Shown: positions 4,453 through 52,003 of the stretch, in pieces
Layout: every line of letters begins with the position of its first letter
Position numbering within the stretch: the first letter of the stretch is position 1
Assembly (NCBI GenBank): GCA_963798845.1
Contig: CAWCUS010000002.1
Location: 256,001-320,000, forward strand
DNA length: 64,000 nucleotides
Direction: 5' to 3'
Source: an uncultured Gemmatimonadales bacterium
GTDB lineage: Bacteria; Gemmatimonadota; Gemmatimonadetes; Longimicrobiales; RSA9
Translations under genes and position numbers: made by a program
The notes under the pieces: generated by a model
Databases searched by the model: none
Seen by the model: only the letters and a program-made list of their open reading frames with translations
What the model was told of the DNA's origin: nothing

Positions 4453-4687
4453 CGACGATCCACGCCATCCCCGTCGGTCGCGGATCCGGGCGGTTCGGGC
4501 GCCCCGGGTGGTGCTGGCCGATGCCCGGCGCGTCGTGTAGACTGTCAGCCGTGGAGAGGCTTCCCGATCGACCCCCTTGCAGCACGGGACCTCGTCGCTC
4601 CACGGCATCCGCTGGCACGCACGTCCTCGCCGGCTCGACGCACACGACACGGGAACAGCCTTGAACCGGAATAGCGCGCCTCATTCC

Positions 4688-7740: not shown

Positions 7741-8074
7741 CGGGAGCGGCGCCGGGCTGCCCCGGGCACCTCTCCACGGTTAGCGCGCGGGGTCGTTTCC
7801 GGCTAGATTCAGGCCTGGTGAACGGGCGCGCTGCGCCCGGCCCGATCCTCTCCTCGAGCGTGCCCGTGAGCGCCGATCGGCATCAACGCCTGCACGATGA
7901 CGCTTCGCGATTTCCGCCCCGGAAATCGCGCCCGGGCATCTACGCGCCTCCCAACCACTGAGCGCCAGGGGCTCGCCGCCCCACGGATCCAATCACCGCG
8001 CCGATGCGCCGCGGGCGGCCCGCCCGCGTGTGGCGCCGGCGTGTCCCGGCAATGCAGCGAACGGAGCGAATCAC

Positions 8075-14037: not shown

Positions 14038-14169
14038 CCGACGCCGGGTCAACCGCCGCCGAACGCCGGGTCAACCTCCGCCGACGCCGGGTCAACCTGC
14101 GCCGACGCCGGGTCAACCTCCCCCGACGCCGGGTCAACCTCCCCCGACGCCGGGTCAACCTCCGCCGAC
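14038..14169. repeat. Tandem repeat, ~21-bp unit x6
   Basis: ACGCCGGGTCAACC at 14041, 14063, 14084, 14105, 14126, 14147. Confidence 0.95.
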
Positions 14170-15450: not shown

Positions 15451-15585
15451 GGATCGAGTGCGCCGGAGGGGCACTTCTTCGGACACGCGCCACGCCGCGA
15501 TGGTTGTGCGCGGCGCCCCGTCATCCGAAGATCCGGCGGGCCGCCCCGTCCCGCGGCGGCCGTCCACCGCTCACCGGGGGCAGTC

Positions 15586-20300: not shown

Positions 20301-20555
20301 CTTTGAATCTCCGTGGCGGCGGCCCGGCTGGAGCCGCATTCGATTCGGCCGCCCATGGGCGGGCGTGACCTCACGGGTATGTACTGCCGGGGCGACGGGG
20401 CGGTTCCGTGGATCATCCTTCGACCCCCGGCCGTCGACGCCCGGCCCGCCACCCCACCTTCCGGGACTCCCCCACACCGGATGGGGCGTTTGCCCGATTG
20501 CGCGGGCGCAGGGCAGGGCCGACCCTGGACGGTGAACCTGCCATCGGAGGGGGCC

Positions 20556-21029
20556 ATGCCCGTTTTCACCCTGACCGTGAACGGCCAGCGTCGCACCGTG
20601 GACGTGCCCGGAGACACGCCGCTGCTCTGGGTGCTTCGCGACGACCTGGGGCTCAAGGGAACCAAGTACTCGTGCGGCGTGGCCGTGTGCGGCGCGTGCA
20701 CGGTCAGCCTGGACGGGATGGCGACGCGCGCCTGCGTGACGCCCATCAGCGTGGCGGCGAACCGGGAGGTCCGCACGATCGAGGGGGCGGCGGGCGACCC
20801 GGTGCTGGAGGCGCTTCAGCGGGCGTGGGTGGAGGAGGAGGTGCCGCAGTGCGGCTATTGCACCCCCGGGATGCTGATGCAGGCGGCGTCGCTCCTGGCA
20901 AGGACGCCCGACCCGACGGACGAAGAGATCGACCGCTGGATGGCCGGCAATCTCTGCCGCTGCGGGACTTATCTGCGGGTGCGAAAGGCGATCCACCGGG
21001 TCGGACAGGAGGTGACCCATGCGCGCTGA
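20556..21029 (+). CDS. (2Fe-2S) subunit of an isoquinoline 1-oxidoreductase / aldehyde oxidase-type molybdoenzyme
   Basis: [39 protein letters not shown]. Confidence 0.92.
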
Positions 21030-26262: not shown

Positions 26263-27636
<1,374 letters not shown>

Positions 27637-36872: not shown

Positions 36873-37040
36873 ATGAGGTACCCTCGCTTGGTTCGGGTTT
36901 GGCCGTGCTCTCAGGCTAAGGTGCCGCGCGCAAGAGAGGCAATCGGGAGGATTCACCGCCCGGCGGCGGGGAAATCCCTTACCCTTGCGGAGCGCCCACG
37001 TCGACTGGCCCGGGACCGGATGCGCGAGCATATTGCCGGC

Positions 37041-37970
37041 ATGAGCCGTACCCTCGAGTCACCGATCCGTTCGTTCGCCGAGCTGAAGGCTCGCGCCGCC
37101 GAAGTACCGCCCGTGCCGGTGGCCGTGGTGGCCGCCGAGAGCCCGTCGGCGCTGGCTGCCGTCGCGGCCGCGGCGGCGGCCGGAATCGCGCTGCCGGTGC
37201 TTGTTGGCGATGGCGCCCGGATCCGGGACGTCGTTGCGGCAGAGCGGATCCGCGGTCTCGACGGTGCCCGGTGGGTGGAAGCGGCGTCGCCCGAGTCCGC
37301 TGCGTCGATCGCGATCGAGCTCGCCCGGGCGGGCGAGGTGGGGATGCTGCTGAAAGGCGCGCTGCGGACGGACCAGCTGCTGCGCGCGACGCTGGACCGG
37401 GAGAACGGGCTCCGCACCGGCCGCCTTCTCTCGGACGTCCTGCTTTACGAGGACACGCTCTCGGGCTCGGTCCGCCTGGTGGGCGTGACGGACGGCGGGA
37501 TCAACCCGGCGCCGGACGCCGACGCGCTGCGCCGGATCGTGGCCAACGCCGTGGCCGTCTTCCGGGCGCTGGGCGTGGCCAGGCCGCGTGTGGCGCTGCT
37601 CAGCGCCACGGAGATGGTGACCGACGCGGTCCCGTCCACGGTCGTGGCCCGCCAGGTGGCCGACTGGGCGTCGAGGGAGCTGCCGGACGCCGACGTGGAC
37701 GGTCCGCTCGCCCTCGACAACGCCCTCATCCCTTCGGCCGCCCGCGCCAAGGGGATCACCGGTCCCGTGGCCGGCTGCGCGGACATCATGGTCACCCCCG
37801 GGATCGACGCCGGCAACATCCTGGGCAAGGGGGTCAAGTACCTCGGCGGGTCCATCACGGCGCACGTGGTCGTGGGGGCGAGAGTTCCGATCCTGATCCC
37901 GTCGCGGGTGGAGAGCGCCGAAGACAAGCTGCACTCCATCGCCTTCGGGGCGCTGGTGGGCGCGCCGTGA
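37041..37970 (+). CDS. ptb: Phosphate butyryl/acyltransferase
   Basis: LLKG.L.T..LL...LD...GLRTGR.LS, TDGGIN.AP, DGPLALDNA, P.IDAGNILGK, SR.ES..DK. Confidence 0.88.
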   Translation: MSRTLESPIRSFAELKARAAEVPPVPVAVVAAESPSALAAVAAAAAAGIALPVLVGDGARIRDVVAAERIRGLDGARWVEAASPESAASIAIELARAGEVGMLLKGALRTDQLLRATLDRENGLRTGRLLSDVLLYEDTLSGSVRLVGVTDGGINPAPDADALRRIVANAVAVFRALGVARPRVALLSATEMVTDAVPSTVVARQVADWASRELPDADVDGPLALDNALIPSAARAKGITGPVAGCADIMVTPGIDAGNILGKGVKYLGGSITAHVVVGARVPILIPSRVESAEDKLHSIAFGALVGAP

Positions 37971-39043
37971 GCCGGCGCCCGCTGATCCTCGCGCTGAACC
38001 CGGGCTCCACAAGCACGAAGTTGGGCCTCTTCGCCGACGGAGCCGCGATCCTCGAGCACACCGCCACGCATGGCGACGGCGCGCTCGCCCGTTTCGGCGG
38101 CCGTCCGATCCTGGAGCAGCTCGAATTCCGCCTGGAGGCGGTGCGCGACGCCCTGTCCGACCATGGCGCCTCGCCGCGCGACCTGGATGCGGTGGTCGGA
38201 CGGGGCGGGTTGCTGCGCCCGCTGGCCAGCGGCACGTACCGCGTCACGGATGCCATGCTCGAGGAGCTGCGCCGGGCGGAGAGGGGAGAGCACGCGTCGA
38301 ATCTGGGCGCCCTCCTGGCCCGGCGGCTCGCGGATGAGGCCGGCTGTCCGGCGTTCATCGTGGATCCGGTGAGCGTGGACGAGTGGGACGACGTCGCCCG
38401 CATCTCCGGTCTGGCGGGGCTGGACCGGGTGTGCCTGTCCCACGCCCTCAACACGAAAGCGGTGGCGAAGCGGCACGCCGCCGAGATCGAGCGCCCGTAC
38501 GACGAGCTCCGGCTCGTGGTCGCCCACCTGGGGAGCGGCGTGAGCGTCTCCGCGCACCGCGGCGGGCGTATGGTGGACGTCAACAACCCTCGCGAGGAGG
38601 GGCCGTTCTCCACGGAGCGGGCCGGCACGATCCCGGTCATGCGGCTGGTGGAGCGGGTGCTGGCCGACGGGTGGACGCCGGACGAGGCGGACCGGCGCCT
38701 GTTCCGGGAGGGGGGGCTGGTCTCCTACCTGGGCACCCGCGACCTGCGGGACGTGGAAGCGCGCATCGCCGCGGGCGACGACCGGGCCCGCCTCGTGTTC
38801 CGCGCCATGGTGTACCAGGTGGCGAAGGAGATCGGCGCCATGGGGGCCGTCCTCCATGGCCGCGTGGATGCCATACTGGTCACGGGCGGGATGGCCCGGA
38901 GTCAGGCGCTGACCGGCGCGCTCTCCGAGGCCGTGTCGTGGATCGCCTCCGTGTTCGTGTACCCGGGCGAGGACGAGCTGAGGGCGCTGGCCGAAGGGGC
39001 CGCCCGCGCGCTCGCCGGCACGGAGGCGGCGCGCGAGTACTAG
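37967..39043 (+). CDS. buk: Butyrate (branched-chain/acyl) kinase
   Basis: LNPGSTSTK, GRGGLL.P..SGTY, HASNLGA, HALN.KA, HLGSG.SV, GPFS.ERAG, YPGEDE; GTGA overlap with ptb. Confidence 0.93.
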   Translation: MSRRPLILALNPGSTSTKLGLFADGAAILEHTATHGDGALARFGGRPILEQLEFRLEAVRDALSDHGASPRDLDAVVGRGGLLRPLASGTYRVTDAMLEELRRAERGEHASNLGALLARRLADEAGCPAFIVDPVSVDEWDDVARISGLAGLDRVCLSHALNTKAVAKRHAAEIERPYDELRLVVAHLGSGVSVSAHRGGRMVDVNNPREEGPFSTERAGTIPVMRLVERVLADGWTPDEADRRLFREGGLVSYLGTRDLRDVEARIAAGDDRARLVFRAMVYQVAKEIGAMGAVLHGRVDAILVTGGMARSQALTGALSEAVSWIASVFVYPGEDELRALAEGAARALAGTEAAREY

Positions 39044-39053: not shown

Positions 39054-39791
39054 TCAGAAGCTGAACGCCGCCGCGCCCACCATCCACTCGGCGCCCGTGT
39101 CGAAGGCTACATCGTTGGCTTCCGCCGTCTTCGGCGGGACCGTCAGACGGATCGCCTCCTGCCAGTGATCGCGGGCGATGAACAGGTAGTTGGAGAGTGC
39201 CCCCAGCATCACGGTGCTGGACAGCTTGTCGTTCCCCAGCTCCCGGGCCAGCGCCAGCGCAGGGAAGGTGAGCAGCGTGATCCCGCGCGCTTCCGTTCTC
39301 GCTTCGAGGTCGCGAGGGTAGCCGGCGGTCTTGAGCGACTCGATGCTCGGCGCGATCCGCTGGTCGTTCACGAGCACGATGCCGCCCGGCTCCACCAGCG
39401 ACAGGTGCCGCGCGGCCTCGAGGCGCTCGAACGCCACGAGGAAATCGGCCTCGCCTTCCGGGATGGAGGAGGAGAGGGCCGCGTCGCCGAAGCGCACGGC
39501 GGTGAGAACCGTGCCGCCCCGCTGCGACATTCCGTGCACTTCCGAGGTCAAGACCTGGTGCCCTGCCAACGCCGCGGCCGTGGCCAGCACCCGTGTGGCG
39601 AGGACGGAGCCCTGACCGCCGACTCCCGCAAGCACGATGTTCGTCACATCGCCGTGAGCGACAGGGCGGACGCTTCCGCCGCGGTCGGACGCCTGCTCGA
39701 CCGGGCCTGCCGCTCCCGCGGTCAGCTCTTCCAGGTCCGTGGCCGCGCCCTGCAGGTCCTCGGACACCGACACCCTCGTGCTATCGGTCAC
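39054..39791 (-). CDS. iorB: Indolepyruvate/arylpyruvate:ferredoxin oxidoreductase beta subunit
   Basis: NIVLAGVGGQG, SEVHGMSQRGG.V...VRFG, FE.LEA.R. Confidence 0.9.
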   Translation of the reverse strand: MTDSTRVSVSEDLQGAATDLEELTAGAAGPVEQASDRGGSVRPVAHGDVTNIVLAGVGGQGSVLATRVLATAAALAGHQVLTSEVHGMSQRGGTVLTAVRFGDAALSSSIPEGEADFLVAFERLEAARHLSLVEPGGIVLVNDQRIAPSIESLKTAGYPRDLEARTEARGITLLTFPALALARELGNDKLSSTVMLGALSNYLFIARDHWQEAIRLTVPPKTAEANDVAFDTGAEWMVGAAAFSF

Positions 39792-42700
39792 GGGTCGCCC
39801 CCTTCCTCATGTGGTTGCTGGCCAGCTCCGCCGCGCGGCGGCCCGTGGCCACCGCCTGCGTCACAGTGCCGTGGCCGAACGCCGCATCGCCGCACGCGAA
39901 CACGCCCTGCCGCGACGTGGCCCCGGCGAAGTTGACGTCGATCCGACCGTTCGCCCGGATGCCGCTCCCGTCCAGGAACGCCAGGTCCGTCTGCTCTCCC
40001 ACGGCCAGGATCACCGCGTCACACTGCTCGATCTCCTCGCTCTCCGCCACGGGTACCGGGCGCCGGCGCCCGCTCCCGTCCGGCTCCCCCTGCGCCATGG
40101 CGATGGTCTCGAGCGCGGTCATCCGCCCGCCCTCTGCCACCACCCGGATCGGCGCCCGCTGGAACCGGAACGTCACCCCCTCCTCCCGCGCCTCCTCGAC
40201 TTCGTCGGGGATGGCGGGCATCTCGCGTTCCGTACGCCGGTAGACCACGTCCACCGTGGCGCCCAGCCGGCGGGCCGCGCGGGCGCAGTCGATGGCCGTG
40301 TTCCCGCCGCCCACCACCGTGACGCGGCGACCCAGCTCCACGGTCTCGCCGGCGTTGAAGCGGCGGAGGAACTCGAGCCCGCCCAGCACGGACCCGGGCG
40401 CGTCGACGGCGCCCTCGAGCGTGATGGCGCGAGCGGCGTGCTGGCCCACGGCCACGATCACCGCGTCGTGCTCGTCCGCCAGCTCCGCCAGCGTCGTGTC
40501 CCGGCCGATTCGGGCGCCCGTGCGGAACTCCACGCCAATCGCCGTGAACCGGGCCAGCTCGGCGTCCAGCACCTCGCGCGGGAGGCGGAACGGAGGGATG
40601 CCGCTCCGGAGCATGCCGCCGGGCGCAGCGTCGGCCTCGAAGACCGTGACGCGCCACCCCTTGCGACGGAGCTGCCACGCCGCGGCAAGTCCGGCGGGGC
40701 CCGACCCGATCACCGCCACCGAGCGACCGAGCTCCTCGCCCGGGGAGAGCGTGTCTGCCGGGTAGTTCTCGATCGCCCAGTCGCCCAGAAACTGCTCCAC
40801 CGCCCGCACCGATATCTTGTTCGGGCCGGCCGGGAACCGCTCCACCAGCGAGCGGTGGCGACCCGCGTACGTGGCCGCCTGCGGGAACCCGAGGGCGTTC
40901 ACGTCGTGGTCGCAGGGGTGGGGACAGACACGGGCCGAGACCGCAGGCAGCGGATTCGAGCGCAGCACGACCTCGAGCGCGTCGGCGAGCCGCCCCTGGT
41001 CCACCAGCTCCAGCATGAGCGAGACGTCGATCCCCGCGTTGCAGTCGGCGCACACCTGCTGACAGAGCGTGCAGCCGTTGCAGAGGAGGTCGTTCACCGC
41101 GAGACGACCGTCGCTCTCCTCGATGGCCGGGCAACCCAGCCGGGTGCACGCAAAGCAGTCCGTGCATCGGTCGGCCTCGAGGAAGATCGGGTCGCCGAAC
41201 GAGACCTTCTCCTTGAGCACGCACGGCTTCTCGGCCACCACCACCGCCGGGGCGTCCGTCCCGGACGCCTGATCCAGAGTGCGCCATGCGCCCAGGAGGT
41301 CGTACGGGTCCACCGTGCGGACGTCCTCCACGCCAACGGCCCGGGCGATCGCGGCGATGTCGATGCGCGGCGCGTCGCCCTGGCCGAGCGTGTGCCCGGT
41401 GCCCGGGTGATCCTGGTGCCCGGTCATGGCGGTGGTCCGGTTGTCCAGCACCACCACCGTCCCCTTGCCCCGGTTGTAGACCACGTCCATCAGCCCCGTG
41501 ACGCCGGAGTGATAGAACGTGGAGTCCCCGATCACGCTCACCACCCGCTTCGCATCCGCCGGCGCCAGCACCTTCGCCATGCCGTGCGCCATGCCGATGG
41601 AAGCGCCCATGTTCATGCACGCATCCATGGCATCCAGCGGCGCGAGCGCGCCGAGCGTGTAGCAGCCGATGTCCCCGCTCACGATCGCATCCATGCGCCC
41701 CAGGGCGTGGAACACGCCGCGGTGCGAGCACCCCGGACAGAGCGCCGGCGGCCGTGACGGCAGCGCCGCGGGTACGTCCGCACCCGCCCCGGCGCCGTCC
41801 GCCTCCTCACGGGGAGTGACGCCCGGCCCGGCGACCGCGCGACGAAGCAGCCCCACGCTCAGCTCGCCATACCGTGGCCACGCACGCGCCTCCACCGCCA
41901 CGCCGCGCGCCCGGATCTGCTCCTCGAGGAACGGCTCCAGCTCTTCCGCAACGAACAGCCGCTTCCCCGCGTGCTCCTCAGCGAACTGCCGGATCGCAGC
42001 CTCCGGGAGTGGATACGTCATCCCGAGGCGGAGCACCGGCGCCGCCGGGAAGGCCTCCCGGACGTAGAGGTAGGGGACACCGGCGGTGATGAAGGCGACG
42101 TCGCCTTCGCCCGGCTCCGCTTCCGCCCACCGCTCGGCTTCCGCGGCGAGCGCCGGCATCCGCTCCTCCTCGATCCAGCGGTGGCGGATCCGGCCATGGG
42201 CGGGGAGCACCACGTTCTTCTGACGATCCTTGTGATACGCCCGAAGTCCCACGGGCTCCCGCTTCCCGGCTTCCACCGGCCCCGTGCCGTGGCTCAGGCG
42301 CGTCGTGGTCCGGAGCAGCACCGGCGTGTCGTACCGCTCGGACAGCGCGAAAGCCGCGGCCGTGTAGCGCCGCGCGTCCGCCGGCGTCGACGGCTCCAGA
42401 AGCGGGATGCGGGCGTGGCGGGCGAACAGGCGGTTGTCCTGCTCGTTCTGAGACGAGTGCATGCCGGGGTCGTCGGCGCTCACGACCACCAGCCCGCCGT
42501 TCACCCCCATGTATGCGGACGAGAAGAGCGGGTCGGCCGCCACGTTCACGCCGACGTGCTTCATCGTGGCCAGCGCCCGAGCGCCGCCCAGTGACGCGCC
42601 CACAGCCACTTCCAGCGCCACTTTCTCGTTCGGCGACCACTCGCAGTCGACGCCGCCGAGGTGCGAAAGCGCTTCCAGGATCTCCGTGCTCGGCGTGCCC

Positions 42701-42864
42701 GGGTAGCCGGCGCCCACCCGCACCCCGGCTTCCCACGCCCCCCGCGCGATCGCCTGGTTCCCCGACAACGGCAGCCGCCGGCCCCCGGACCCGCTACCGG
42801 AAGCGACGCCCACCCACGCGCGCTCCTGCCTCTCTGGCCGCGCTGCGGCCCTTCTATCCGTCAT
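39781..42864 (-). CDS. iorA: Indolepyruvate/arylpyruvate oxidoreductase alpha subunit fused to a GltD-like FAD/NAD(P) oxidoreductase
   Basis: GN.AIARGA, GYPGTPSTE, MKHVG.NVA.D, DDPG.HSSQNEQD, CPGCSH, GDIGCY, GDSTF.HSG, TAMTG.Q, two [4Fe-4S] motifs; then NPLP...RVCPHPC, IGSGPAG, GGGNTAID. Confidence 0.9.
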   Translation of the reverse strand: MTDRRAAARPERQERAWVGVASGSGSGGRRLPLSGNQAIARGAWEAGVRVGAGYPGTPSTEILEALSHLGGVDCEWSPNEKVALEVAVGASLGGARALATMKHVGVNVAADPLFSSAYMGVNGGLVVVSADDPGMHSSQNEQDNRLFARHARIPLLEPSTPADARRYTAAAFALSERYDTPVLLRTTTRLSHGTGPVEAGKREPVGLRAYHKDRQKNVVLPAHGRIRHRWIEEERMPALAAEAERWAEAEPGEGDVAFITAGVPYLYVREAFPAAPVLRLGMTYPLPEAAIRQFAEEHAGKRLFVAEELEPFLEEQIRARGVAVEARAWPRYGELSVGLLRRAVAGPGVTPREEADGAGAGADVPAALPSRPPALCPGCSHRGVFHALGRMDAIVSGDIGCYTLGALAPLDAMDACMNMGASIGMAHGMAKVLAPADAKRVVSVIGDSTFYHSGVTGLMDVVYNRGKGTVVVLDNRTTAMTGHQDHPGTGHTLGQGDAPRIDIAAIARAVGVEDVRTVDPYDLLGAWRTLDQASGTDAPAVVVAEKPCVLKEKVSFGDPIFLEADRCTDCFACTRLGCPAIEESDGRLAVNDLLCNGCTLCQQVCADCNAGIDVSLMLELVDQGRLADALEVVLRSNPLPAVSARVCPHPCDHDVNALGFPQAATYAGRHRSLVERFPAGPNKISVRAVEQFLGDWAIENYPADTLSPGEELGRSVAVIGSGPAGLAAAWQLRRKGWRVTVFEADAAPGGMLRSGIPPFRLPREVLDAELARFTAIGVEFRTGARIGRDTTLAELADEHDAVIVAVGQHAARAITLEGAVDAPGSVLGGLEFLRRFNAGETVELGRRVTVVGGGNTAIDCARAARRLGATVDVVYRRTEREMPAIPDEVEEAREEGVTFRFQRAPIRVVAEGGRMTALETIAMAQGEPDGSGRRRPVPVAESEEIEQCDAVILAVGEQTDLAFLDGSGIRANGRIDVNFAGATSRQGVFACGDAAFGHGTVTQAVATGRRAAELASNHMRKGATRDR

Positions 42865-43049: not shown

Positions 43050-43520
43050 CTATGTCCTCGCGACGTCCCCGCCAGCACCGCGCCGCCGCACCAGAAACCG
43101 GAGCTCGCCCGCCTGGACAACCTCGCGGCCCGCCCTCAGCTCCGCCGACAGAGTCACCACACCCCGGTCTCCCTGCCGCGAAACCCGCTTCGACGACACC
43201 TCGAGCGCCACGTGCACCTCCGACCCGGGCACCAGCGGGGCCACGAAGTCCCAGGTCAGCCCCAGGAACGCGATCAGCGTCCCCCGCGTCAGCCCGCGCC
43301 GGTTCAGCAGACCGGTCGCCACGGCAAGACCCAGCGCACCGTGGGCAATCCGTCGGCCGAACACCGACTGCGCCGCGTACGACTCGTCCAGGTGCAGCGG
43401 GTTCACGTCCCCGGACACAGCCGCGAACGCCTCCACGTCCGCCTGCGTCACGACCCGGCTCCCGGTCAGGTAGCCGCGGCCCACCTCGAAGTCGTCGAAC
43501 GTCAGGGATTCCTCGGGCAT
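43050..43520 (-). CDS. MaoC-like (R)-specific enoyl-CoA hydratase/dehydratase
   Basis: FDDFEVG, FAAVSGD.NPLH.D..YA, IAHG; GGAG SD. Confidence 0.88.
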   Translation of the reverse strand: MPEESLTFDDFEVGRGYLTGSRVVTQADVEAFAAVSGDVNPLHLDESYAAQSVFGRRIAHGALGLAVATGLLNRRGLTRGTLIAFLGLTWDFVAPLVPGSEVHVALEVSSKRVSRQGDRGVVTLSAELRAGREVVQAGELRFLVRRRGAGGDVART

Positions 43521-43655
43521 CGTCGGCTCCTGGTCACGCGAAGGCGCTCGGTCCCCGGTGCTCCTCCGCGTGTCCGCGTGAAGACCCTTGACACCCGGGC
43601 CCCGTTGGCGACGTATTACAGCAACACTACGATCGTTAACCATTCGTGACAAGAG

Positions 43656-44513
43656 ATGCCCGCTCGACGTCCCCAGGACCTGGTGTTCACGCTCTTCGGC
43701 GATTTCCTGCTGCACCGGCCATCGCCGGTGTGGGTGGGCAGCCTGATCGCGCTGCTGGAGCCGCTGGGGCTGAGCGAAACGAACGTGCGGACGGTGCTGT
43801 CGCGGATGGCGGGGAAGGGTTGGCTGAGAGCGGAGCGGGCGGGTCGCCGCAGCTATTACGCGCTGACGGGGCGTGGCCGGCGGCTTCTGGAGGAGGGGGA
43901 GACGCGGATCTACCGGCCGCGGGATGCGGGGGGTTGGGACGGGGAGTGGACGCTGCTGGCGTATTCGATTCCGGAGGAGCAGCGGGGTCAGCGGGACCGT
44001 CTGCGGGTTCGCCTGGAGTGGCTCGGGTTCGGTTCGCTGGGGAACGGGCTGTGGGTGACTCCGCACGACGTCGCCGACCCGGTGCGTGAGATGGCGGATG
44101 AGCTGGAGGTGAGGGAGTACGTGGAGGTGTTCCGCGGCCGGCACCTGGGCTTGGGCGACGCCCGCGAGCTGGTGGGTCGCTGCTGGGATCTGGCGGGGCT
44201 GAACGCGCGTTACGAGGCGTTCATCGAGCGTCATCTGGACGGGTGCGTGGCGCTGAAGGAGGAGGGCCATGCGTCCATCGAGCCGCGGGACGCGTACGTA
44301 CGGCGGTTCCGGCTGGTGCACCAGTACCGGGACTTCCCGCTCCAGGACCCGTTCCTCCCCAGGGAATTGCAGCCTGAGCACTGGGCGGGGGAGTGCGCGC
44401 TGAGCCTGTTCAACCATTACCACGAGCTGCTGGCGGCGCCGGCGGACCGTTTCGTGGAGCCGCTCTTCGAAGCTGGAAGTTCACGAAGGCGGCCGGCCGT
44501 TGTGGTCAGGTGA
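43656..44513 (+). CDS. paaX: PaaX family transcriptional regulator
   Basis: LVFTLFGD, VR..LSRM...GWL, Y.LT..G, WDGEW, R.RLR..L.WLGFG, WDL..L...Y, DPFLP.EL.P..W. Confidence 0.9.
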   Translation: MPARRPQDLVFTLFGDFLLHRPSPVWVGSLIALLEPLGLSETNVRTVLSRMAGKGWLRAERAGRRSYYALTGRGRRLLEEGETRIYRPRDAGGWDGEWTLLAYSIPEEQRGQRDRLRVRLEWLGFGSLGNGLWVTPHDVADPVREMADELEVREYVEVFRGRHLGLGDARELVGRCWDLAGLNARYEAFIERHLDGCVALKEEGHASIEPRDAYVRRFRLVHQYRDFPLQDPFLPRELQPEHWAGECALSLFNHYHELLAAPADRFVEPLFEAGSSRRRPAVVVR

Positions 44514-44532
44514 GGCGACCGTCCGTGGTGGT

Positions 44533-44611
44533 ATCACACGAAGAGCGCGAAGCCACGGAGTCTCTCTCGTGATCTTCGTCTTCCTTCGTGGCCTTCCTGT
44601 CTTCGTGCGAT
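44533..44611. repeat. Imperfect palindrome built of CACGAAG / CTTCGTG units
   Basis: ATCACACGAAGA ... TCTTCGTGCGAT ends (11/12 complementary), with internal GCGAAG, CACGGAG, CTCGTG, CTTCGTC and CTTCGTG copies. Confidence 0.6.
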
Positions 44612-44623
44612 AAGGAGCCGAGC

Positions 44624-45733
44624 ATGCCGAAGTTCGAGCCGCGTCCCGCCGAGTCCTACGACTTCCGGGAGATCCTGTACGAGAAGGGCGACTGGGTGGC
44701 GCGTGTCACGCTGAACCGTCCCCACAACTACAACGCCTACTCGACGGAAGCGCTGCGCGAGCTGATCACTGCGTTCCACGACGCGGCGTTCGACGACAGG
44801 GTGGGCGTGGTGGTCTACACGGGCGCGGGGACGAAGGCGTTCTGCACGGGCGGAGACGTGAAGGAGTACGAGGTGGAGTACACGCAGCGCCCGCGTGACT
44901 ACTGGAAGTACATGCGGCTGTTCCGTGAGTATATCGAAAGCATCGTTCAGCTGGGCAAGCCCACCATCGCGCGACTGAACGGCATGGCTGTGGGCGGGGG
45001 CAACGAGAGCCAGATGGCGTGCGACCTCGCCGTGATGGCCGAGCACGCGTACATCGGCCAGGTAGGAACACGAGTGGGGAGCGTGGCGGCCGGCGGGGCG
45101 ACGCAGTGGCTCCCCCTGCTGGTCGGGGACCGGCGCGCCCGCGAGATCCTCATGTTCAACGGCCGGATCCCGCCGCGGCAGTGCCTGGACTGGGGTCTCG
45201 TGAACCGGGTGGTGCCGAGCGTGGTCAGGGACGGGGCGTTCATCGAAGGCGCGTCGTCGGAACAGATCGCAAAAGCGCAGAACGCGGAGGACGGCTACGC
45301 GATCTCGCTGGAGAAGCTGGACGAAACGGTAGCGGAGATGGCGGAGGTGCTGCTCCAGCAGTTCCCGGAATGCACCCGCTACACCAAGCAGCAGGTGAAC
45401 TTCTGGAAGGAGCTCGCGTGGAGCCAGACGGTCGGCCACGCGGGAGACTGGCTGGCGCTTCACTACTCGTCGCTCGAGCCGTGGGAAGGGATGCGGGCGT
45501 TCGTGCAGAAGCGGAAGCCCCGCTACATGGAGTTGCGGGAGCGCGCGGCGAACGGTGGCTCCAGCGAATTCCTGTGGGGCGCGCCGGGGGGCGACTGTCC
45601 CGCGTGCGGCGCGGAAGGTATTCCGACCGGCTTCAATTTCTGCGGCGCGTGCGGAGCCGAGCTGGGGACGGACGGGGCCGGCGCGGGGGCCCTCGAACCG
45701 CGGGACGCTGCGAGAGCCCCGGCGGGAGGGTGA
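44624..45733 (+). CDS. oah: 6-oxocyclohex-1-ene-1-carbonyl-CoA hydrolase (Oah/BamA/BzdY-like) with C-terminal zinc ribbon
   Basis: Crotonase fold with Oah-like motifs YNAYST, KAFCTGG..KEY...Y, Y.KYMRLF, GGAT..LP, FPECT..TK, WLAL; tail CPAC..CGAC; AAGGAG SD. Confidence 0.8.
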   Translation: MPKFEPRPAESYDFREILYEKGDWVARVTLNRPHNYNAYSTEALRELITAFHDAAFDDRVGVVVYTGAGTKAFCTGGDVKEYEVEYTQRPRDYWKYMRLFREYIESIVQLGKPTIARLNGMAVGGGNESQMACDLAVMAEHAYIGQVGTRVGSVAAGGATQWLPLLVGDRRAREILMFNGRIPPRQCLDWGLVNRVVPSVVRDGAFIEGASSEQIAKAQNAEDGYAISLEKLDETVAEMAEVLLQQFPECTRYTKQQVNFWKELAWSQTVGHAGDWLALHYSSLEPWEGMRAFVQKRKPRYMELRERAANGGSSEFLWGAPGGDCPACGAEGIPTGFNFCGACGAELGTDGAGAGALEPRDAARAPAGG

Positions 45734-45734
45734 A

Positions 45735-46502
45735 GTGGCATACCGGCACCTTCGCGTCGACACCGGCGCCGCTGTCGCCCGTGTGGTCCTGAATCGTCCT
45801 CCGCTGAACGTCCTGACCATCGAGATGCTGGACGAGCTGGTCGAGGCGATCGCGGCCGCCTCGGCGGATCCGGCGACGCGGGTGGTGGTGCTCACGGGGG
45901 AGGGCAGAGCCTTCTGCGCCGGGGTGGACGTGGCGGACCACACAGTCGAGCGCGTGGGAACAATGATCGAGTCGTTCTCCCGCGCCATCGGCGCGCTCCT
46001 GTCGATGGATCTTCCGGTGGTGGCGGCGCTGAACGGCGCCGCGCTGGGCGGCGGCCTCGAGCTCGCGCTGGCCTGCGACGTGGTCCTGGCGCGGGCGGGG
46101 TCCAAGCTGGGCCAGCCGGAAATCCGCCTCGGCGTCTTTCCCCCGGCCGCGGCGGCGCTGCTCCCCCGGCGCGTGGGAGTGCAGCGGGCGCTGGACCTGG
46201 TGCTCACGGGCCGCACGGTGACGGCAGAAGAGGCGGCCCCGATGGGGCTGGTCACGGCCGTGCTCCCGGCCGACGACTTCGGCGCGGCCGTGAACGACTA
46301 CGTGGCGCAGGTGGCCGGTCTCAGCCGGCCGGTCCTGGCGCTGGCGAAGCGAGCCGTGATCCAGGGGCTGGACCGGCCGCTGTCGGCGGCGTTGGTGGGG
46401 GCGGACACGCTGTACCTCAACGAGCTGATGGCTCTGCGCGATCCCCACGAGGGACTGGCGGCGTTCGCGGAGAAGCGCGCGCCGGTCTGGAGCGACGAGT
46501 AG
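45735..46502 (+). CDS. dch: Cyclohexa-1,5-diene-1-carbonyl-CoA hydratase (Dch/BzdW-like crotonase)
   Basis: RPPLNVL, FCAGVDVADH, GGGLEL, GQPEIRLGVFPP, LYL.ELM...D..EGL.AF; operon context. Confidence 0.82.
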   Translation: MAYRHLRVDTGAAVARVVLNRPPLNVLTIEMLDELVEAIAAASADPATRVVVLTGEGRAFCAGVDVADHTVERVGTMIESFSRAIGALLSMDLPVVAALNGAALGGGLELALACDVVLARAGSKLGQPEIRLGVFPPAAAALLPRRVGVQRALDLVLTGRTVTAEEAAPMGLVTAVLPADDFGAAVNDYVAQVAGLSRPVLALAKRAVIQGLDRPLSAALVGADTLYLNELMALRDPHEGLAAFAEKRAPVWSDE

Positions 46503-46503
46503 C

Positions 46504-47697
46504 ATGGCGACACCGAAGCGCGAGATCCCGGCCCCGGAGCGGCTGCTGGACATCGACCTCTCGACCCCGCTCGACGAGGTGCTGGCCCGCTGCCGCGAGG
46601 TGGTGGAGGACGCGGAGTACCCGACCGTGCGGAAGTGGCGGGAGGGTGGTGGCAAGGTGCTCGGCCACTTCCAGGTCTACTTCCCCGAGGAGCTGGCGCA
46701 CGCGGCGGGCATGCTCCCGGTGAAGATCCGGGGCGGGCAGGTGGACCGGCGGGAAGCCGACTCCCGCTTCGGCTCCGCCATCTGCTCCATCCCCCGGACC
46801 ACGCTCGAGCTCGCCATGAACGGCACGCTGGTGCCGGACCTGTTCGTCACCCACCCGATCTGCGACGTGGCCCGCAACCTGGCGGGGATCTGGGAGCGCA
46901 ACGTGACCACGCCGGCGCAGATCCTCTACTTCCCGCAGAACCCCAACTCCCGCTTCTCCGCCGACTTCCTCACCGCGGAGTACCGGCGTCTGCTGGGCGA
47001 GATCGAGGCCGTCGTGGGCCGGACGGTGGCGGAGGACGAGATCCGCGATTCGGTGGCCCTTTTCAACGAGAACCGTCGCCTGCTGCGTGAGCTCTACGCC
47101 ATCAAGCGGGAGGAGCCGTGGCGCCTGCCGGTGGACGAGGCGTACGTGCTGGTGGCGCTGGCCGGGCTCATCCCCCGGGAGGAGCACAACCACGTGCTGC
47201 GCACGATCATCCCGCGCATCCGGGAGCGCGAGGCGAGAAAGCAGGACCGGATGCGTGTGGTGTTCGAGGGTGGGTTCTGCGAGCAGCCGCCTCTCGACCT
47301 GCTCCGGTCCATCGCCCAGTTCGTGTACGTGGTGGATGACGACCTCCTCATCGGCCTGCGCTGGATCACCGAGGACGTGGATCTGGCGGGCGATCCGGTG
47401 GGCAGGCTGGCGGAAGCGTACCTGGAGCGGTCGTCGTACAGCCCCGTGCAGCACGACCTGCGCAAGCCGAAGGAGCAGATGCTGCTGCAGCGGATCCTCG
47501 CCGCACGCGCCGAGGCGGCCATCGTGGCCGCGGCCAAGATGTGCGAGCCGGGTCTGGACGAGCAGGTGGCGTACTCCCAGGCGCTGGACCGCGAGAAGAT
47601 CCCGTACTTCGTCACCGAGTTCGAGGAGAACATGACGGCCTACGACCATCTGCAGATCCAGCTCGAGACCTTCGTCGAGAACCTGCTCTTCGAGTGA
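46504..47697 (+). CDS. bcrC: Class I benzoyl-CoA reductase subunit C (gamma)
   Basis: [61 protein letters not shown]; resembles Thauera BcrC as recalled. Confidence 0.85.
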
Positions 47698-47705
47698 GGG
47701 GGCGC

Positions 47706-49037
47706 ATGAATCCGGTGACTGCGGACACGATCCACGGGCGGGCCTTCCGCCAGGGCAGGGAGCTCTTCGACGACTGGTACGGCCAGTTGACCCGCGCTCA
47801 CGAGACGGGCGAGCAGGCGGCGTACGTGTTCGTGATGGGCAGCCTGATGGAGATCCTGCGCACGTTCGGGCTTCACGGGGTCTTCCCGGAGATCAACTCG
47901 CTCCAGACTGCGGTGAAGAAGGTCTCGGACGGGTACCTGAGCCAGGCGGAGGACGAGGGCTTCTCGCCGGACGTGTGCGGCTACGTGAAAGCGGACTACG
48001 CCCTCCAGCGTCGCAACGGCGAGCACCCGCGCGGCATGATCCCGCCGCCGGCCATATCGGTGCTCACCAACGCGTGCAACACGTATCTCAAGTGGGGCGA
48101 GATCTGGGAGCGCATGTACGACGCTCCGGTCTTCACGGTGGACATCCCGCAGTCCCGCTCCGTTTCCGACAGCGCGGCGGGTGTCGGGTTCGCGGCCGAC
48201 CTGGAGTACGTGCGGCGGCAGCTGGACGAGCTGATCGAGGTGCTCGAGGGTCTCACGGGCAGGCGCTTCGACATCGACCGCTTCCGCGAGGTGCTGGGTC
48301 ACGTCAACGACATGGGGCGGCACTACCGGCGCGTGCTGGAGCTGAACGCCCGGGCGCCGGCCGCGTTCGACGCGGTGCTGGAGGGCACCATGTACCTGGG
48401 GGTGGCCAATGCGCTCCGCGGCACGAAGGAGGGCGCGGACTACTTCCGCGACCTGGCCGAGGAGCTGGAGCTGCGCATGGCCGAGGGCCGCGGGGCCCTG
48501 GGCGAGACGCCCGAGCGGCACCGCCTGATCTTCGTGGGCGTGCCCTGCTATCCGATCTTCTCGCGCTTTCACGCCATGTTCAGCGGGTGGGGCGGGGCGT
48601 TCGTGAGCTCCACCTACCTGTGGTTCGCCTCCGGCGGCCTCGACCTGGATTTCGAGTACGACCTGTCGCGCCCGCTGGAGAGCCTGGCCGAAGGCGTGCT
48701 GCGCGGCGTCCGCCGCGCCACGGACGCCATGCTGTTCCAGGACCGGCTGCTCATCGAGGCCGTGGACCGCTACCACGCGGACGGGGTGGTCTACCACCCC
48801 GTGAAGAGCTGTCGCACCGTCTCCACCAGCCTGGCCGACAGCCGCCGGGTGGTGCTCCGGGAGCGCGATGTTCTCGCTCTCTACATCGAGAGCGACATGA
48901 TGGACAAGCGGGTGGTCTCGGAAGCCCAGCTGAAGAACCGCATCGACGCCTTCTTCGAGGGGCTGGAGAGTCGGAGGCTGCGGATGAACGGCGCGGCCGC
49001 CGGCAGCGGCGCCGCCGCCAGCGAGGAGGTCGCATGA
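47706..49037 (+). CDS. bcrB: Class I benzoyl-CoA reductase subunit B (beta)
   Basis: [36 protein letters not shown]...DY, KSCR, IESD..D.R..S...KNR. Confidence 0.85.
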
Positions 49038-49903
49038 GCTACGCGGGCGGAGTGGACGTCGGCTCGACCCAGACCAAGGCCGTGGTGGTGGACGGGGACC
49101 GCCGCATCGTGGGCCGCAGCCTCATCGACACGGGGGCCAACGTGGTGGAGGCGGCGGAGAACGCGTTCGCGCTGGCGCTGGCGGAGGCCGGTCTCGAGCG
49201 CGACGACGTGGACTTCGTCATCGGGACCGGCTACGGCCGCTACAAGGTGGAGTTCGGCGACACCCAGGTGACGGAGATCGTGTGCCACGCCCGCGGGGCG
49301 GCGGAGATGTTCCCGGGCACGCGCACGGTGCTGGACATGGGGGGCCAGGACACGAAGGCGATCCGGGTGCAGCGCGGTGGCGAGGTCCTGGACTTCTGCA
49401 TGAACGACAAATGCTCGGCGGGCACCGGCCGCTTCCTCCAGTCGGCGGCCGCGGCGCTGGAGCTGGACCTGGCGGAGCTCGGGCCCACGGCGCTGCGGGG
49501 GCGTCGGCCGGTGCCCATCAGCACCACGTGCACCGTGTTCGCGGAGTCGGAGGTGCTGTCGTGGCTGGCGAGGGGTCGCAAGCTAGAGGACATCCTGCTG
49601 GGCGTGCACCAGTCCATCGCCAAGCGCTCGTTCGGCCTTCTCAAGCGGGTGGGCGTGGAGGAGGAGGTGACCTTCACGGGCGGGGTGACGAAGAACCCGG
49701 CCATGGTGCACGTGCTGAACGAGCTGCTCGGCACCGAGATGAACGTGGGCGCCGAGTCCCACTTCATCGGCGCTCTGGGCGCGGCCCTGTTCGCGCTCGA
49801 GCGGGCGGAGGGCGGGGTCATCCCCGCGGGCGATCTCACCGGCGCGGCCGCGGACGGCGATGCGGCCCGGAGCTGCGCCACGGGACGGGAGGTGGTCGCA
49901 TGA
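49034..49903 (+). CDS. bcrA: Benzoyl-CoA reductase ATP-binding activator subunit (short BcrA / BzdQ-like)
   Basis: ASKHA motifs [57 protein letters not shown] overlaps at both ends. Confidence 0.8.
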
Positions 49904-50721
49904 GCTGCACGGCGGGGGTGGACGTCGGCTCGACGTACACGAAGGCCGCGATCCTCGACGACGCCGGCCAGTTGCTGGGCCGGAGCATGGCGCCGACCGG
50001 CTTCCGCCTGGAGGCGGCGGCGCGGGCGGCGCTGGACGCCGCGCTGGCCGAGGCGGGTGTCGACGCGGCGGACGTGGTCTACACCGCCACCACCGGCTAC
50101 GGCCGCAACCAGGTGGCGTTCCGCGACGTCCAGGCCACGGACCTGACGGCGCAGTCGTGGGGGACTCGCTGGTTCTTCCCGTCTACCCGAACGGTGCTGG
50201 ACATCGGCGGGCAGACCATGAAGGCCATGCGCGTGGACGACGCGGGCAAGGTCCGCTCGTTCCGCCTGAACGACAAGTGTGCCGCGGGCACGGGCGCGTT
50301 CCTGGAGAAGACGGCGCGCTACCTCGGCTACGGCCTCGAGGAGATCGGGATGCTCGTCCAGGGCGCGGAGGCGTCGGTGCCCATCAGCGGCGTGTGCGCG
50401 GTGTTCGCCGAGTCGGAGGTGATCAACCACGTGAGCAACGGGAGCCAGCCCGGCGAGATCATGCTGGGCGCCATGGAGTCGCTCATCGAGAAGAGCGTGC
50501 GGCTCATGAAGCGCGTGCAGATGGAGCCGGAGTTCACGCTGGTGGGCGGGATCATGCGCTTCCCCACCATGGTGCAGGTCATGCGCGAGCACCTGGCGGA
50601 GGGCGTCAACGTGCCGCCCGAGCCGCTGGTCCAGTACACCGGCGCCATTGGTGCCGCGATCCTCGCACGGCGCAGGCTGGAGAAGCTCGAGGCCGAGGAC
50701 GCCGAGGCCGCGGCCGCGTGA
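49900..50721 (+). CDS. bcrD: Benzoyl-CoA reductase ATP-binding activator subunit (BcrD / BzdP-like)
   Basis: [52 protein letters not shown]. Confidence 0.8.
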
Positions 50722-50984
50722 GCGCGCCGGTGCCCGCACTCGACATCGGGCCGGCCGCCAGCGAGCGCGTCCGGGAGCGCGACGGGGCCCTGGCGCTGGA
50801 TGGCTGGACGCGACGCTTCATCGGCGCCCCGCCCCGTCTTGGGGAGATGGCGGCGCTCTACCGCTCGGTGGGCCAGGAGGTGCTGCTCGAGCCCCTGGAG
50901 GACGATGACCTGGCGCACGAGTGCGCCGGGTGCACGCTCGCCCTCTCCCTCTTTCGCGTCGTCTACACGAGGATCCCCCGATGA
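50718..50984 (+). CDS. Small hypothetical CxxC protein (88 aa), not called as a separate ORF in the track
   Basis: GTGA overlap with bcrD stop and ATGA overlap with had start; GWTRRF...PRL.E...LY...GQEVLLEP...CAGC...VYTR. Confidence 0.75.
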   Translation: MSAPVPALDIGPAASERVRERDGALALDGWTRRFIGAPPRLGEMAALYRSVGQEVLLEPLEDDDLAHECAGCTLALSLFRVVYTRIPR

Positions 50985-52003
50985 AGGCCGCTCTCTTCCA
51001 TGGCGCCAACCGCCCGCTCACCATCGAGGACATCCCCGTGCCGGAGCCGGGCCGCGGCGAGGTGCTGGTGAAGGTGGCGGGGTGCGGTGTGTGCCACACG
51101 GACCTCCACTACATCGACCACGGCACGCCCACCTTCAAGAACCCGCCGATGGTCCTCGGCCACGAGATCGCGGGCACACTGGCCAGCCCCGACCCGACCG
51201 GGCGGCTGCTTGAGGGCGAGCACGTGCTCCTCCCGGCCGTGCTGTCGTGCGGCCACTGCGACGCGTGCCGCGGGGGGCGGGAGAACATCTGCCAGAACGG
51301 GATCATGCTGGGCAACAACATCGATGGCGGGTACGCCGAGTACGTCGCCGTCCCCGCAAAGGACGTGTTCCGGCTCCCCGACGAGATCCCGCTCGTGGAG
51401 GGCTCCATCATCGCCGACGCCCTCACCACCCCCTTCCACGCGGTGATGAACCGCGGCCGCGTCCGCCCGGGCGACCGGGTGGTGGTGGTGGGGTGTGGCG
51501 GGGTCGGACTGAACGTCGTGCAGATGGCCGCCGTGGTGGGCGCTCGGGTGGTGGGCGTGGACGTGTCGCCCGAGAAACTGGCGTGGGCCGAGCGCCTGGG
51601 CGCGGAAGCCACGTTGAACCCGACCGGGGTGGAGCGCCCGGACAGGGCGCTTCGCGCCCTCACCGACGGCGGCGCCGACGTGGCGTTCGAGGCCGTCGGC
51701 CGCCCCGACACGCAGGCGCTGGCCGTGGACGCGGTGAAGACCGGCGGGCGCGTGGTCTTCGTGGGCTACAGCCCGAAGGCCATGGAGCTCAACGCCGGCC
51801 GGGTCATGTTCCGGGAGCTCGAGGTCGTGGGATCGCTCGGCTGTCGCCCGGTCGACTACCCGCGCGTCATCGACCTCGTCCGCCAGGGCCGCGTCGAAGT
51901 GACGGCGCTGGTGACCCGCCGCTTCACGCTCGACGAGATCGGCGACGCGTTCGACTTCCTGCGCAGCGGGGCATCGATCCGGAGCGTGGTGACCCCCACC
52001 TGA
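50981..52003 (+). CDS. had: 6-hydroxycyclohex-1-ene-1-carbonyl-CoA dehydrogenase (Zn-dependent ADH)
   Basis: VAGCGVCHTDL, LGHEI.G, CGHCDAC......C, ADA.TTP, G.GGVG; operon context. Confidence 0.85.
   Translation: MKAALFHGANRPLTIEDIPVPEPGRGEVLVKVAGCGVCHTDLHYIDHGTPTFKNPPMVLGHEIAGTLASPDPTGRLLEGEHVLLPAVLSCGHCDACRGGRENICQNGIMLGNNIDGGYAEYVAVPAKDVFRLPDEIPLVEGSIIADALTTPFHAVMNRGRVRPGDRVVVVGCGGVGLNVVQMAAVVGARVVGVDVSPEKLAWAERLGAEATLNPTGVERPDRALRALTDGGADVAFEAVGRPDTQALAVDAVKTGGRVVFVGYSPKAMELNAGRVMFRELEVVGSLGCRPVDYPRVIDLVRQGRVEVTALVTRRFTLDEIGDAFDFLRSGASIRSVVTPT

Follow-up and report, generated by a model that had tools for sequence, protein, structure and literature searches.

An IorA–NfnB-type flavoprotein fusion from an uncultured Gemmatimonadales bacterium: a likely NADP+-coupled 2-oxoacid oxidoreductase, conserved and not tied to the ring-reductase genes beside it

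2-Oxoacid:ferredoxin oxidoreductases (OFORs) are usually coupled to free ferredoxin, and to our knowledge only a few forms that reduce NAD(P)+ are known biochemically: the phenylglyoxylate:NAD+ oxidoreductase Pad, the 2-oxoglutarate:NADP+ oxidoreductase (KGOR) of Azoarcus and, from another enzyme family, AorABC. PadEFGHI of Azoarcus/Aromatoleum is a five-subunit Por-type OFOR with an added flavin component, and it forms benzoyl-CoA. The A. evansii KGOR of Ebenau-Jehle et al. 2003 is reportedly a Kor-type enzyme of separate subunits that acts on 2-oxoglutarate. In PMC10134865 the alpha subunit of this KGOR is grouped with GltD/NfnB homologues. Here we describe a gene from a 64,000-nucleotide stretch of an uncultured Gemmatimonadales bacterium (GenBank contig CAWCUS010000002.1, positions 256,001 to 320,000; the whole stretch is hereafter called the window) in which the alpha subunit of an indolepyruvate oxidoreductase (IOR), IorA, is joined in one polypeptide to an NfnB-type flavoprotein. 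Together with the IorB encoded next to it, the product likely acts as an arylpyruvate (2-oxoacid):NADP+ oxidoreductase, with the coupling to NADP+ built into the enzyme. Like the A. evansii KGOR, it would be an OFOR that reduces NADP+ through a component of the GltD/NfnB family, and the KGOR host also has a class I benzoyl-CoA reductase; unlike the KGOR, it is not built of separate subunits and not of the Kor type. It resembles Pad in the predicted use of aryl 2-oxoacids and of a flavin component leading to pyridine nucleotide, whereas Pad is a five-subunit Por-type enzyme. Models of the Pad equivalogs gave weak matches at best: PadE scored 33.4 bits on IorB against a cut-off of 300, and no Pad model was among the 25 best of 109 families for the fusion.

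The fusion gene (Table 1) is an open frame of 1027 codons with no internal stop, in a window of ~70% G+C where real genes were told apart from spurious open reading frames (ORFs) by third-position G+C. Pfam domains on the product were POR_N (residues 42-205), TPP_enzyme_C (398-543), Fer4_20 (598-653) and Pyr_redox_2 (715-1008; 114 bits). The NCBIfam IOR_alpha model TIGR03336 aligned with residues 33-606 over model positions 5-591 of 595 (646.6 bits; cut-off 650.9), and the best model over residues 606-1021 was NF009410 (PRK12771, NfnB/GltD-like; 362.2 bits, cut-off 516). The fusion is not a member of the PRK12771 family, as only model positions 52-447 of 566 were covered and a C-terminal dicluster domain is required. 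With IorAB of the P. furiosus type (TIGR03336/TIGR03334) it shares a full-length IorA core, the thiamine diphosphate (TPP) domain, the proximal cysteines, the 2x[4Fe-4S] ferredoxin domain and an iorB gene downstream; it differs from IorAB in 420 extra C-terminal residues, which make up a module with Fe-S, flavin adenine dinucleotide (FAD) and NADP sites, and in a predicted acceptor that is NADP+ and not free ferredoxin. A reading made from the sequence alone had described a 1027-residue fusion of IorA and a flavoprotein; the open frame and the Pfam and NCBIfam matches confirmed it, and all of the motifs which that reading quoted were found in place.

In a search of a collection of 5.8 billion proteins, 7999 candidates were scored and the best 120, as 90%-identity clusters, were listed; fused homologues were recognized by an IorA signature, a GGGN[TS]A signature and the junction pattern C..C..C...C..C. 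Both halves and the identical junction, in proteins of at least 900 residues, were present in 101 of the 120 best clusters listed, at 49-79% identity to the query. Among the clusters listed, the named sources of fused homologues were metagenome-assembled genomes (MAGs) of Longimicrobiales/Gemmatimonadota and of Bipolaricaulota/Acetothermia. Within the window's order the fusion was found in 21 of the 401 genomes sampled (20 besides this genome), four of these copies being cut by contig ends. This recurrence in 101 of the 120 best clusters listed and in 20 further genomes of the order rules out a frameshift or an assembly artefact, and the stop or frameshift between the domains that the sequence-only reading had allowed for does not exist. 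Three public DNA sequencing runs, all from one study, contained parts of the fusion only; a 249-nt contig from a public DNA run spanned the junction (40871-41119) with 0 differences, its source sample possibly being the same as that of the genome. No RNA run was listed as carrying the fusion among the public sequencing runs. We found neither a published fusion of IorA with GltD or NfnB nor an assayed enzyme of this architecture in the literature searched, a coverage outside which most subscription journals lie; the second of these points is taken up below.

Two pattern-level surveys put the fusion among its unfused relatives. A scan of genome contigs with a profile from an alignment of 67 fused homologues returned 79 loci, mostly unfused IorA, of which one was a fusion (L012, apparently the same contig as G465:C63, with an equal length of 118,357); two others that had appeared to be long fusions (L030 and L033) were rejected, being iorA-iorB followed by another OFOR. 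The pattern NPxPA[VI]xxRVCPHPC[DE], scanned in metagenomes, returned mostly unfused NfnB-like genes of 32-45% identity, and L113 was the only fusion among the 80 loci fetched; the CPHPC motif is therefore not specific for the fusion. In one protein of 1146 residues and 39% identity (P0117), the ferredoxin region of IorA is degenerate; a complete NfnB-type N-domain and the flavoprotein come next, and a 2x[4Fe-4S] domain ends the chain, a topology which looks like an independent route to joining the same parts. Other NfnB-like fusions occur in relatives (G521:C239, G167:C24, G435:C39, G469:C71, G451:C70) as frames of ~920-1120 residues whose N-terminal 500 residues match PRK12771; they recall the large chains of NfnABC and Stn (9n5u, 9bov), and none was present in this genome.

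Across the 67 aligned fused homologues, which were 48-76% identical, 15 cysteines were invariant in every sequence: three sets of four, together with C608, C647 and C651. The first set (C376, C379, C401, C548) we take, from general knowledge of OFORs, to ligate the TPP-proximal cluster. The other two sets are those of the 2x[4Fe-4S] ferredoxin domain, namely the cysteines of ferredoxin motif I and the first four of the junction motif (Table 1). The junction motif, CNGCTLCQQVCADC, merges ferredoxin motif II of IorA with the end of motif A of NfnB, and its pattern of cysteines was present in 101 of 101 full-length homologues.

According to PMC7596348, the distal cluster of T. maritima NfnB is ligated by C39, C42, C47 and C100 and the proximal cluster by C51, C90, C96 and E117, and Y310-R311-R312 bind the 2'-phosphate of NADPH, this YRR motif being tied to a preference for NADP(H). 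In a HMMER alignment to that chain (4ylf_B), C608 and C647 of the fusion were paired with C51 and C90, E690 was paired with E117, and Y875-R877 coincided with the YRR motif; across the 67 sequences Y875 and R876 were invariant, and R877 was kept in at least 90%. The proximal ligand set of NfnB is thus represented, by alignment, in C608, C647, C651 and E690. The distal set is not: the region of motif A is overlaid by ferredoxin motif II of IorA, and in an alignment with the paralogues no equivalent of C100 was present in the fusion (CPHPCDHDV), whereas the three unfused NfnB-like paralogues of the genome all keep it (CHHPCEIGC, CDRPCEPAC, CPAPCESEC). The fusion therefore shares with the NfnB, NfnABC and Stn chains (4ylf_B, 5jca_L, 9n5u_A) the fold, the C/C/C/E proximal ligands and the FAD, NADP and YRR motifs, and departs from NfnB in the loss of C100, in the replacement of the first part of motif A by the IorA ferredoxin motif and in an insertion of ~20 residues after CPHPC. 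These correspondences suggest that the FAD-proximal cluster of NfnB was retained, and that the distal cluster was replaced by the last cluster of the IorA ferredoxin domain. The sequence-only reading had described a partly degenerate Fe-S region with serine where cysteine is usual; one cysteine is indeed missing, but it is the last one, the equivalent of NfnB C100, and not the position of S643, which aligns with NfnB C86, a residue that is not a listed ligand, and which varies among the 67 sequences (A31/S25/T8/V3).

An AlphaFold2 model of the whole chain, built from the 67-sequence alignment, had a mean predicted local distance difference test (pLDDT) score of 89.2 and a predicted template-modelling (pTM) score of 0.85, with low confidence only at residues 1-26 and 347-371. 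When the C-terminal half was compared with solved structures in Foldseek, it matched chain A of T. sibiricus NfnABC (9n5u_A) with an E-value of 7.9e-42, 43% identity and a root-mean-square deviation of 2.4 over 418 columns; TM scores by target were 0.78 for T. maritima NfnB (4ylf_B), 0.76 for P. furiosus NfnI (5jca_L) and 0.77 for GltD. A sequence search gave the same order, with 9n5u_A first (1.3e-89), above 4ylf_B (6.4e-68) and GltD (2vdc_G, 4.4e-52). By sequence and fold alike the NfnB-type proteins were thus closest: after 9n5u_A came C. saccharolyticus Nfn-ABC, StnC of Sporomusa and the NfnI and NfnB chains of P. furiosus and T. maritima, and only then the small subunits of glutamate synthase. 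For the IorA half, no solved IOR was found by sequence in the PDB copy searched, the best match (2e-13) covering POR_N only.

This anatomy suggests a path for the electrons. An arylpyruvate or a related 2-oxoacid would be oxidatively decarboxylated at TPP to the acyl-CoA, and the two electrons would leave singly, from the TPP-proximal [4Fe-4S] cluster to the two clusters of the IorA ferredoxin domain. They would then pass through the single retained NfnB-type cluster (C608, C647, C651, E690) to the FAD, and from there as hydride to NADP+, for which the YRR motif would give preference over NAD+. With the splice made at a cluster motif, the last cluster of IorA would occupy the place of the distal cluster of NfnB. 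The electrons thus probably go to NADP+ instead of free ferredoxin. The 2-oxoacid couple lies near -500 mV and NADP+ near -320 mV, and a drop of this size would therefore make the reaction a committed catabolic step.

Run in the opposite sense, the enzyme would use NADPH to carboxylate arylacetyl-CoA reductively, yielding arylpyruvate from which aromatic amino acids would be made. The flavin module could accept NADPH, but at ~-320 mV NADPH is, by general thermodynamics, too weak for a couple of ~-500 mV unless energy is coupled in; the conserved partner genes are moreover ptb and buk and not CoA ligases, and the surroundings in the window are rich in peptidases and catabolic. We regard a biosynthetic direction as scarcely credible.

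The partner genes were established from up to 20 kb of sequence fetched around each of the 20 other fusion loci. In all loci whose sequence extended past the end of the fusion, iorB was the gene directly after it. Of the 16 loci with adequate flanking sequence, 15 had ptb-buk (16 of 17 with this window), the exception being G699. The constant partners of the fusion are iorB and ptb-buk. As a module, fusion-iorB-ptb-buk would convert 2-oxoacids derived from amino acids to acyl-CoA, acyl-phosphate and finally acid plus ATP, with no need for free ferredoxin; the acyl-CoA would be handed to Ptb and Buk for substrate-level phosphorylation where that is its fate.

Next to the fusion in this window stands a benzoyl-CoA reductase (bcr) module, and the sequence-only reading had proposed that the ring reductase might have in the fusion a built-in source of electrons. 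Low-potential electrons from the oxidation of arylpyruvate, or electrons from NADPH by way of the flavin as proposed for BzdV, would then be handed to the Bcr-type enzyme or to its ferredoxin. In this genome and in G425, which is of the same genus and has the same arrangement, 3.6 kb separate the fusion from bcrC, and the two modules are within 10 kb of each other in G441 and G699. No 2x[4Fe-4S] ferredoxin gene was found in the window or in the bcr module; a scan of all six frames across the 64 kb of the window gave CxxCxxCxxxC once, at the fusion's own junction, and the bcr module is thus without a classical ferredoxin gene. Published systems lend the idea some precedent as well: BzdV, encoded with benzoyl-CoA reductase in the bzd cluster of Azoarcus sp. 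CIB, is termed a putative NADPH:ferredoxin oxidoreductase in PMC5658619, and PMC8163825 attributes the regeneration of ferredoxin in A. evansii to an NADP-dependent oxidoreductase. By its description alone BzdV is set apart from the fusion as a stand-alone protein with no OFOR part, and no stand-alone BzdV-like homologue was found in the Longimicrobiales-type bcr modules examined.

Distribution speaks against such a supply. All 73 genomes of the window's family in the collection were searched for the fusion and for BcrC: both were found in 7, the fusion only in 13, BcrC only in 18 and neither in 35 (31 without four unpublished genomes, G409, G443, G485 and G491, all of which fall in this cell). 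Hence 13 of the 20 fusion carriers had no BcrC and 18 of the 25 BcrC carriers had no fusion, and the 7 co-occurrences compare with 6.85 expected under independence, a table which, since related genomes are not independent, we read only as showing no enrichment. In genus g3 the fusion was present in all 7 genomes and BcrC in none, and 7 of the 13 fusion-only genomes were at least 93% complete. In the flanks fetched around the 20 other fusion loci, bcr genes were found in three: G425; G441, where bcrDABC-dch lies beyond ptb-buk; and G699, where bcrABC-dch-oah-had follows directly after iorB. Counting this genome, 4 of the 21 fusion genomes thus have the modules within 10 kb, and three arrangements are represented; 8 genomes have both modules, and in the remaining 4 of these they are not adjacent.

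The bcr loci gave the same picture from the other side. Twenty bcr loci with no adjacent fusion were fetched with their flanks, and homologues of IorA, IorB, NfnB-like proteins, Kor, Por or 7Fe ferredoxin were found in 0 of 20. At least 9 of these loci carry the unit maoC / paaX-oah-dch-bcrCBAD-had, others a second type, had-oah-x-dch-bcrCBAD, and in the three annotated loci the flanking genes were unrelated. In bcr-only genomes maoC is found together with paaX-bcr, and fusion-only loci lack it; MaoC and PaaX are kept with bcr where no ior gene is nearby, and so belong to the bcr module. This compact module, in its two types, was present in 25 of the 73 family genomes (window 43050-52003; L275, L283, L284, L293-L311) and had no ferredoxin, OFOR or CoA-ligase gene inside. 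The window therefore holds two independently conserved modules side by side, and the position of the fusion beside bcr is a local juxtaposition and not a rule.

An internal path to NADP+ (~-320 mV) would, furthermore, drain low-potential electrons rather than deliver them, the conserved partners of the fusion are iorB and ptb-buk, and at another site in the genome there is a gene for a ferredoxin of the 7Fe type. Nothing here specifically supports a donor role for the reductase, and we consider it unlikely. The earlier proposal that one polypeptide could both form the aryl-CoA and move electrons between Fe-S centres and NAD(P)H is borne out by the domain anatomy but is not supported as an account of the reductase's supply, and the circumstance which its author had named as damaging, a fusion that is common and unlinked to bcr, is largely what the clusters and the family genomes displayed. 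The fusion is real and conserved, it is not tied to ring reduction, and the enzymes known to correspond to it are NAD(P)+-reducing OFORs of several subunits.

A link at the level of the pathway is a different matter. The fusion may make an aryl-CoA that feeds or induces ring reduction while its flavin module disposes of the electrons to NADP+, for example by converting phenylpyruvate to phenylacetyl-CoA, the classical effector of PaaX, or phenylglyoxylate to benzoyl-CoA as in Pad; this is compatible with an NADP+-coupled enzyme and would explain the adjacency. The paaX gene sits between the two modules, the adjacency recurs in three arrangements, and for anaerobes that degrade phenylalanine a conversion of phenylpyruvate to phenylacetyl-CoA by IorAB has been proposed or reported (PMC5109826; PMC9765128). 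A second case comes from a Planctomycetaceae MAG (contig L065, 2281-12786), where oah-had-bcrCBAD is followed by the co-directional genes porC, an NfnB-like-PorD fusion (PRK12771, 516.5 bits), porA and porB. Here an OFOR of five parts, similar to Pad, stands immediately behind a ring-reductase operon, an arrangement which can be counted for an electron supply as well as for a shared pathway, and with it NfnB-coupled OFORs recur beside bcr. Yet PaaX and MaoC accompany bcr with no ior gene nearby in at least 9 loci, so that PaaX has no fixed tie to the fusion; in the window, no candidates were identified for the enzymes that would convert phenylacetyl-CoA to benzoyl-CoA; and the modules are apart in half of the genomes that have both. 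Where both modules are present a functional link is plausible, a shared pathway being its simplest explanation, and here both would most likely serve the catabolism of aromatic amino acids or aromatic acids; that the fusion directly feeds or induces ring reduction we hold as a tentative possibility, short of probable.

Several observations weigh against the NADP+-coupled oxidoreductase that we favour. The TIGR03336 score of the fusion is 4 bits below the cut-off, and the scores of IorB and Ptb are also below theirs; C651 aligns two residues before NfnB C96 and not on it; and, as said, the literature searched held no assayed enzyme of this architecture. The proximity of the modules in four genomes would exceed chance for two modules in a 4-Mb genome, and coupling to NADP+ alone leaves it unexplained. 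In every solved relative found (Nfn, NfnABC, Stn), moreover, the NfnB-type FAD sits in an electron-bifurcating complex, and a more complex redox role of the fusion is possible.

Two such roles can be put in concrete terms. In the first, electron pairs would be split or merged at the NfnB-type FAD, which would stand between the Fe-S chain of the OFOR and a second partner of high potential, and the closest solved relatives are indeed all subunits of bifurcating complexes (9n5u, 9bov, 8oh5, 5jca, 4ylf). No gene for an NfnA-type partner (FAD + [2Fe-2S]) was found among the window neighbours or in the conserved fusion module, and no other flavin or [2Fe-2S] partner is encoded in that module, which holds only iorB and ptb-buk; unlike Nfn, the fusion is without an NfnA-type partner, and bifurcation is therefore not expected. 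The same fold also occurs without bifurcation in GltD, DPD and DsrL (in part after PMC7596348). We regard a bifurcating or confurcating enzyme as very unlikely. In the second, which would apply where the modules adjoin (this genus, G441, G699), the fusion would be an OFOR with dual output, oxidizing an aryl 2-oxoacid and sending aryl-CoA into ring reduction and low-potential electrons through its exposed ferredoxin clusters to Bcr or its ferredoxin, with the NfnB-type flavin as an overflow valve to NADP+ or an entry point for NADPH. This we consider improbable; if true, the fusion would do in one polypeptide what the KGOR/BzdV donor systems do in Thauera and Azoarcus.

The NADP+-coupled reading has further parallels in the same 4.26-Mb genome, which contains three NfnB-like genes besides the fusion. 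On contig C1 (~627.6-631.2 kb; L009 5631-9152), porC and porA flank a 581-aa PRK12771 protein (540.5 bits, above cut-off), an NfnB-like flavoprotein with a C-terminal PorD-type ferredoxin that forms the delta subunit of a Por/Vor-type OFOR. On contig C4 (L010 5840-10712), a 617-aa NfnB-like gene lies directly upstream of genes for a two-subunit OFOR of the korA/korB type, and is a split form of the same coupling. The third, on contig C3 (L011 4795-9388), is a DsrL-like gene (PRK12771, 575.6 bits) between dsrB and a CobB/DsrN-like amidase gene, in what looks like a dissimilatory sulfite reductase cluster. An NfnB-type module thus accompanies every one of the three OFOR systems that came up in this way, the Ior fusion, the Por-type and the Kor-type system. 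In the family, 61 of the 73 genomes had PRK12771-like genes (above cut-off in 24), which fits a lineage that couples its OFORs to pyridine nucleotides. The PRK12771-type proteins of porCDAB-type clusters resemble the fusion in that an OFOR ferredoxin module is covalently joined to an NfnB-like flavoprotein; unlike the fusion, they have the flavoprotein N-terminal and the ferredoxin C-terminal, form a separate small subunit and keep both NfnB cluster motifs. The only small ferredoxin-like gene found in the genome encodes a 7Fe-type ferredoxin of ~77 aa (contig C6, ~385.3 kb, minus strand); the idea of a genome devoid of free ferredoxin was rejected on its account.

The fusion thus appears as a compact design for coupling, in which an NfnB-type flavoprotein was welded onto IorA at a shared Fe-S motif, apparently with the loss of one cluster. 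If the proposed reaction is correct, the oxidation of aromatic and other 2-oxoacids would count as a source of NADPH, and not of reduced ferredoxin, in Gemmatimonadota, Bipolaricaulota and other uncultured groups, and the enzyme would be a ferredoxin-free catalyst for arylacetyl-CoA or aroyl-CoA. How class I ring reductases outside the Proteobacteria are supplied with electrons is not answered by this locus; the bcr modules of the window's family carry no donor genes.

Table 1. Coordinates of the fusion gene, its sequence features and the neighbouring genes in the window. Residue numbers are those of the fusion product.
Feature	Position	Strand	Evidence
Fusion gene (IorA + NfnB/GltD-like flavoprotein module), 1027 aa	39781..42864	-	open frame and profile matches
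IorA part, residues 1-605: POR_N, TPP-binding domain, 4 proximal Cys, 2x[4Fe-4S] ferredoxin domain	41050..42864	-	TIGR03336
Ferredoxin motif I CTDCFACTRLGCP, residues 567-579 (C567, C570, C573, C578)	41128..41166	-	invariant in 67/67
Junction motif CNGCTLCQQVCADC, residues 595-608 (C595, C598, C601, C605, C608)	41041..41082	-	invariant in 67/67
SARVCPHPCD, residues 643-652	40909..40938	-	alignment to 4ylf_B
E690, aligned to NfnB E117	40795..40797	-	conserved in at least 90% of 67 sequences
FAD motif IGSGPAG, residues 719-725	40690..40710	-	Pfam NAD_binding_8 and Pyr_redox_2; G720, G722, P723, G725 invariant
NAD(P) site: GGGNTAID, residues 852-859, and Y875-R876-R877 (YRR)	40234..40311	-	aligned to IVYRRTEREMPA segment of T. 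maritima NfnB
iorB; overlaps the fusion stop codon; conserved part from ~residue 48	39054..39791	-	Pfam POR, 133 bits; NCBIfam IOR beta models at most 199.6 bits, all below cut-offs
buk, butyrate-kinase-type acyl kinase, convergent with iorB	37982..39043	+	NF002834, 474.4 bits (cut-off 222); synteny conserved
ptb, phosphate acyl(butyryl)transferase-like	37062..37970	+	TIGR02706, 226.5 bits (cut-off 410.5); synteny conserved
MaoC-type dehydratase, part of bcr module	43050..43520	-	Pfam MaoC
paaX	43656-44513	+	
oah-like	44588-45733	+	
dch-like	~45738-46502	+	
bcrC-like	46504-47697	+	
bcrB-like	~47745-49037	+	
bcrA-like	~49010-49903	+	
bcrD-like	~49894-50721	+	
had-like	50921-52003	+	

As a whole, the neighbouring bcr module spans 43656..52003 on the plus strand, with the gene of a PaaX-type regulator at its head and divergent from maoC. 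The Bcr subunits were matched best by the Thauera-type models, at scores below the NCBIfam cut-offs (274.3 vs 421.15; 207.2 vs 486.55). The sequences ahead of the fusion and of the bcr operon were inspected by eye for a PaaX-type operator common to both; TTCGTG-like words were repeated near paaX/oah, and ahead of the fusion nothing convincing was seen.

Elsewhere in the window, genes for peptidases (M3, S9, DUF5700, M24, S46), glutamate dehydrogenase and a class-III aminotransferase are dense (4577-6757, 10387-12486, 14155-16896, 59059-61197, 26263-27624, 8030-9397), and this peptidase-rich region looks devoted to the catabolism of peptides and amino acids. Just upstream of ptb, an ORF of 509 aa (35502-37031, minus strand) showed a coding-type codon bias and matched no Pfam or NCBIfam family. 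At ~17 kb from the fusion, 20313-23124 on the plus strand encodes [2Fe-2S] and molybdopterin-binding subunits of the xanthine-dehydrogenase family.

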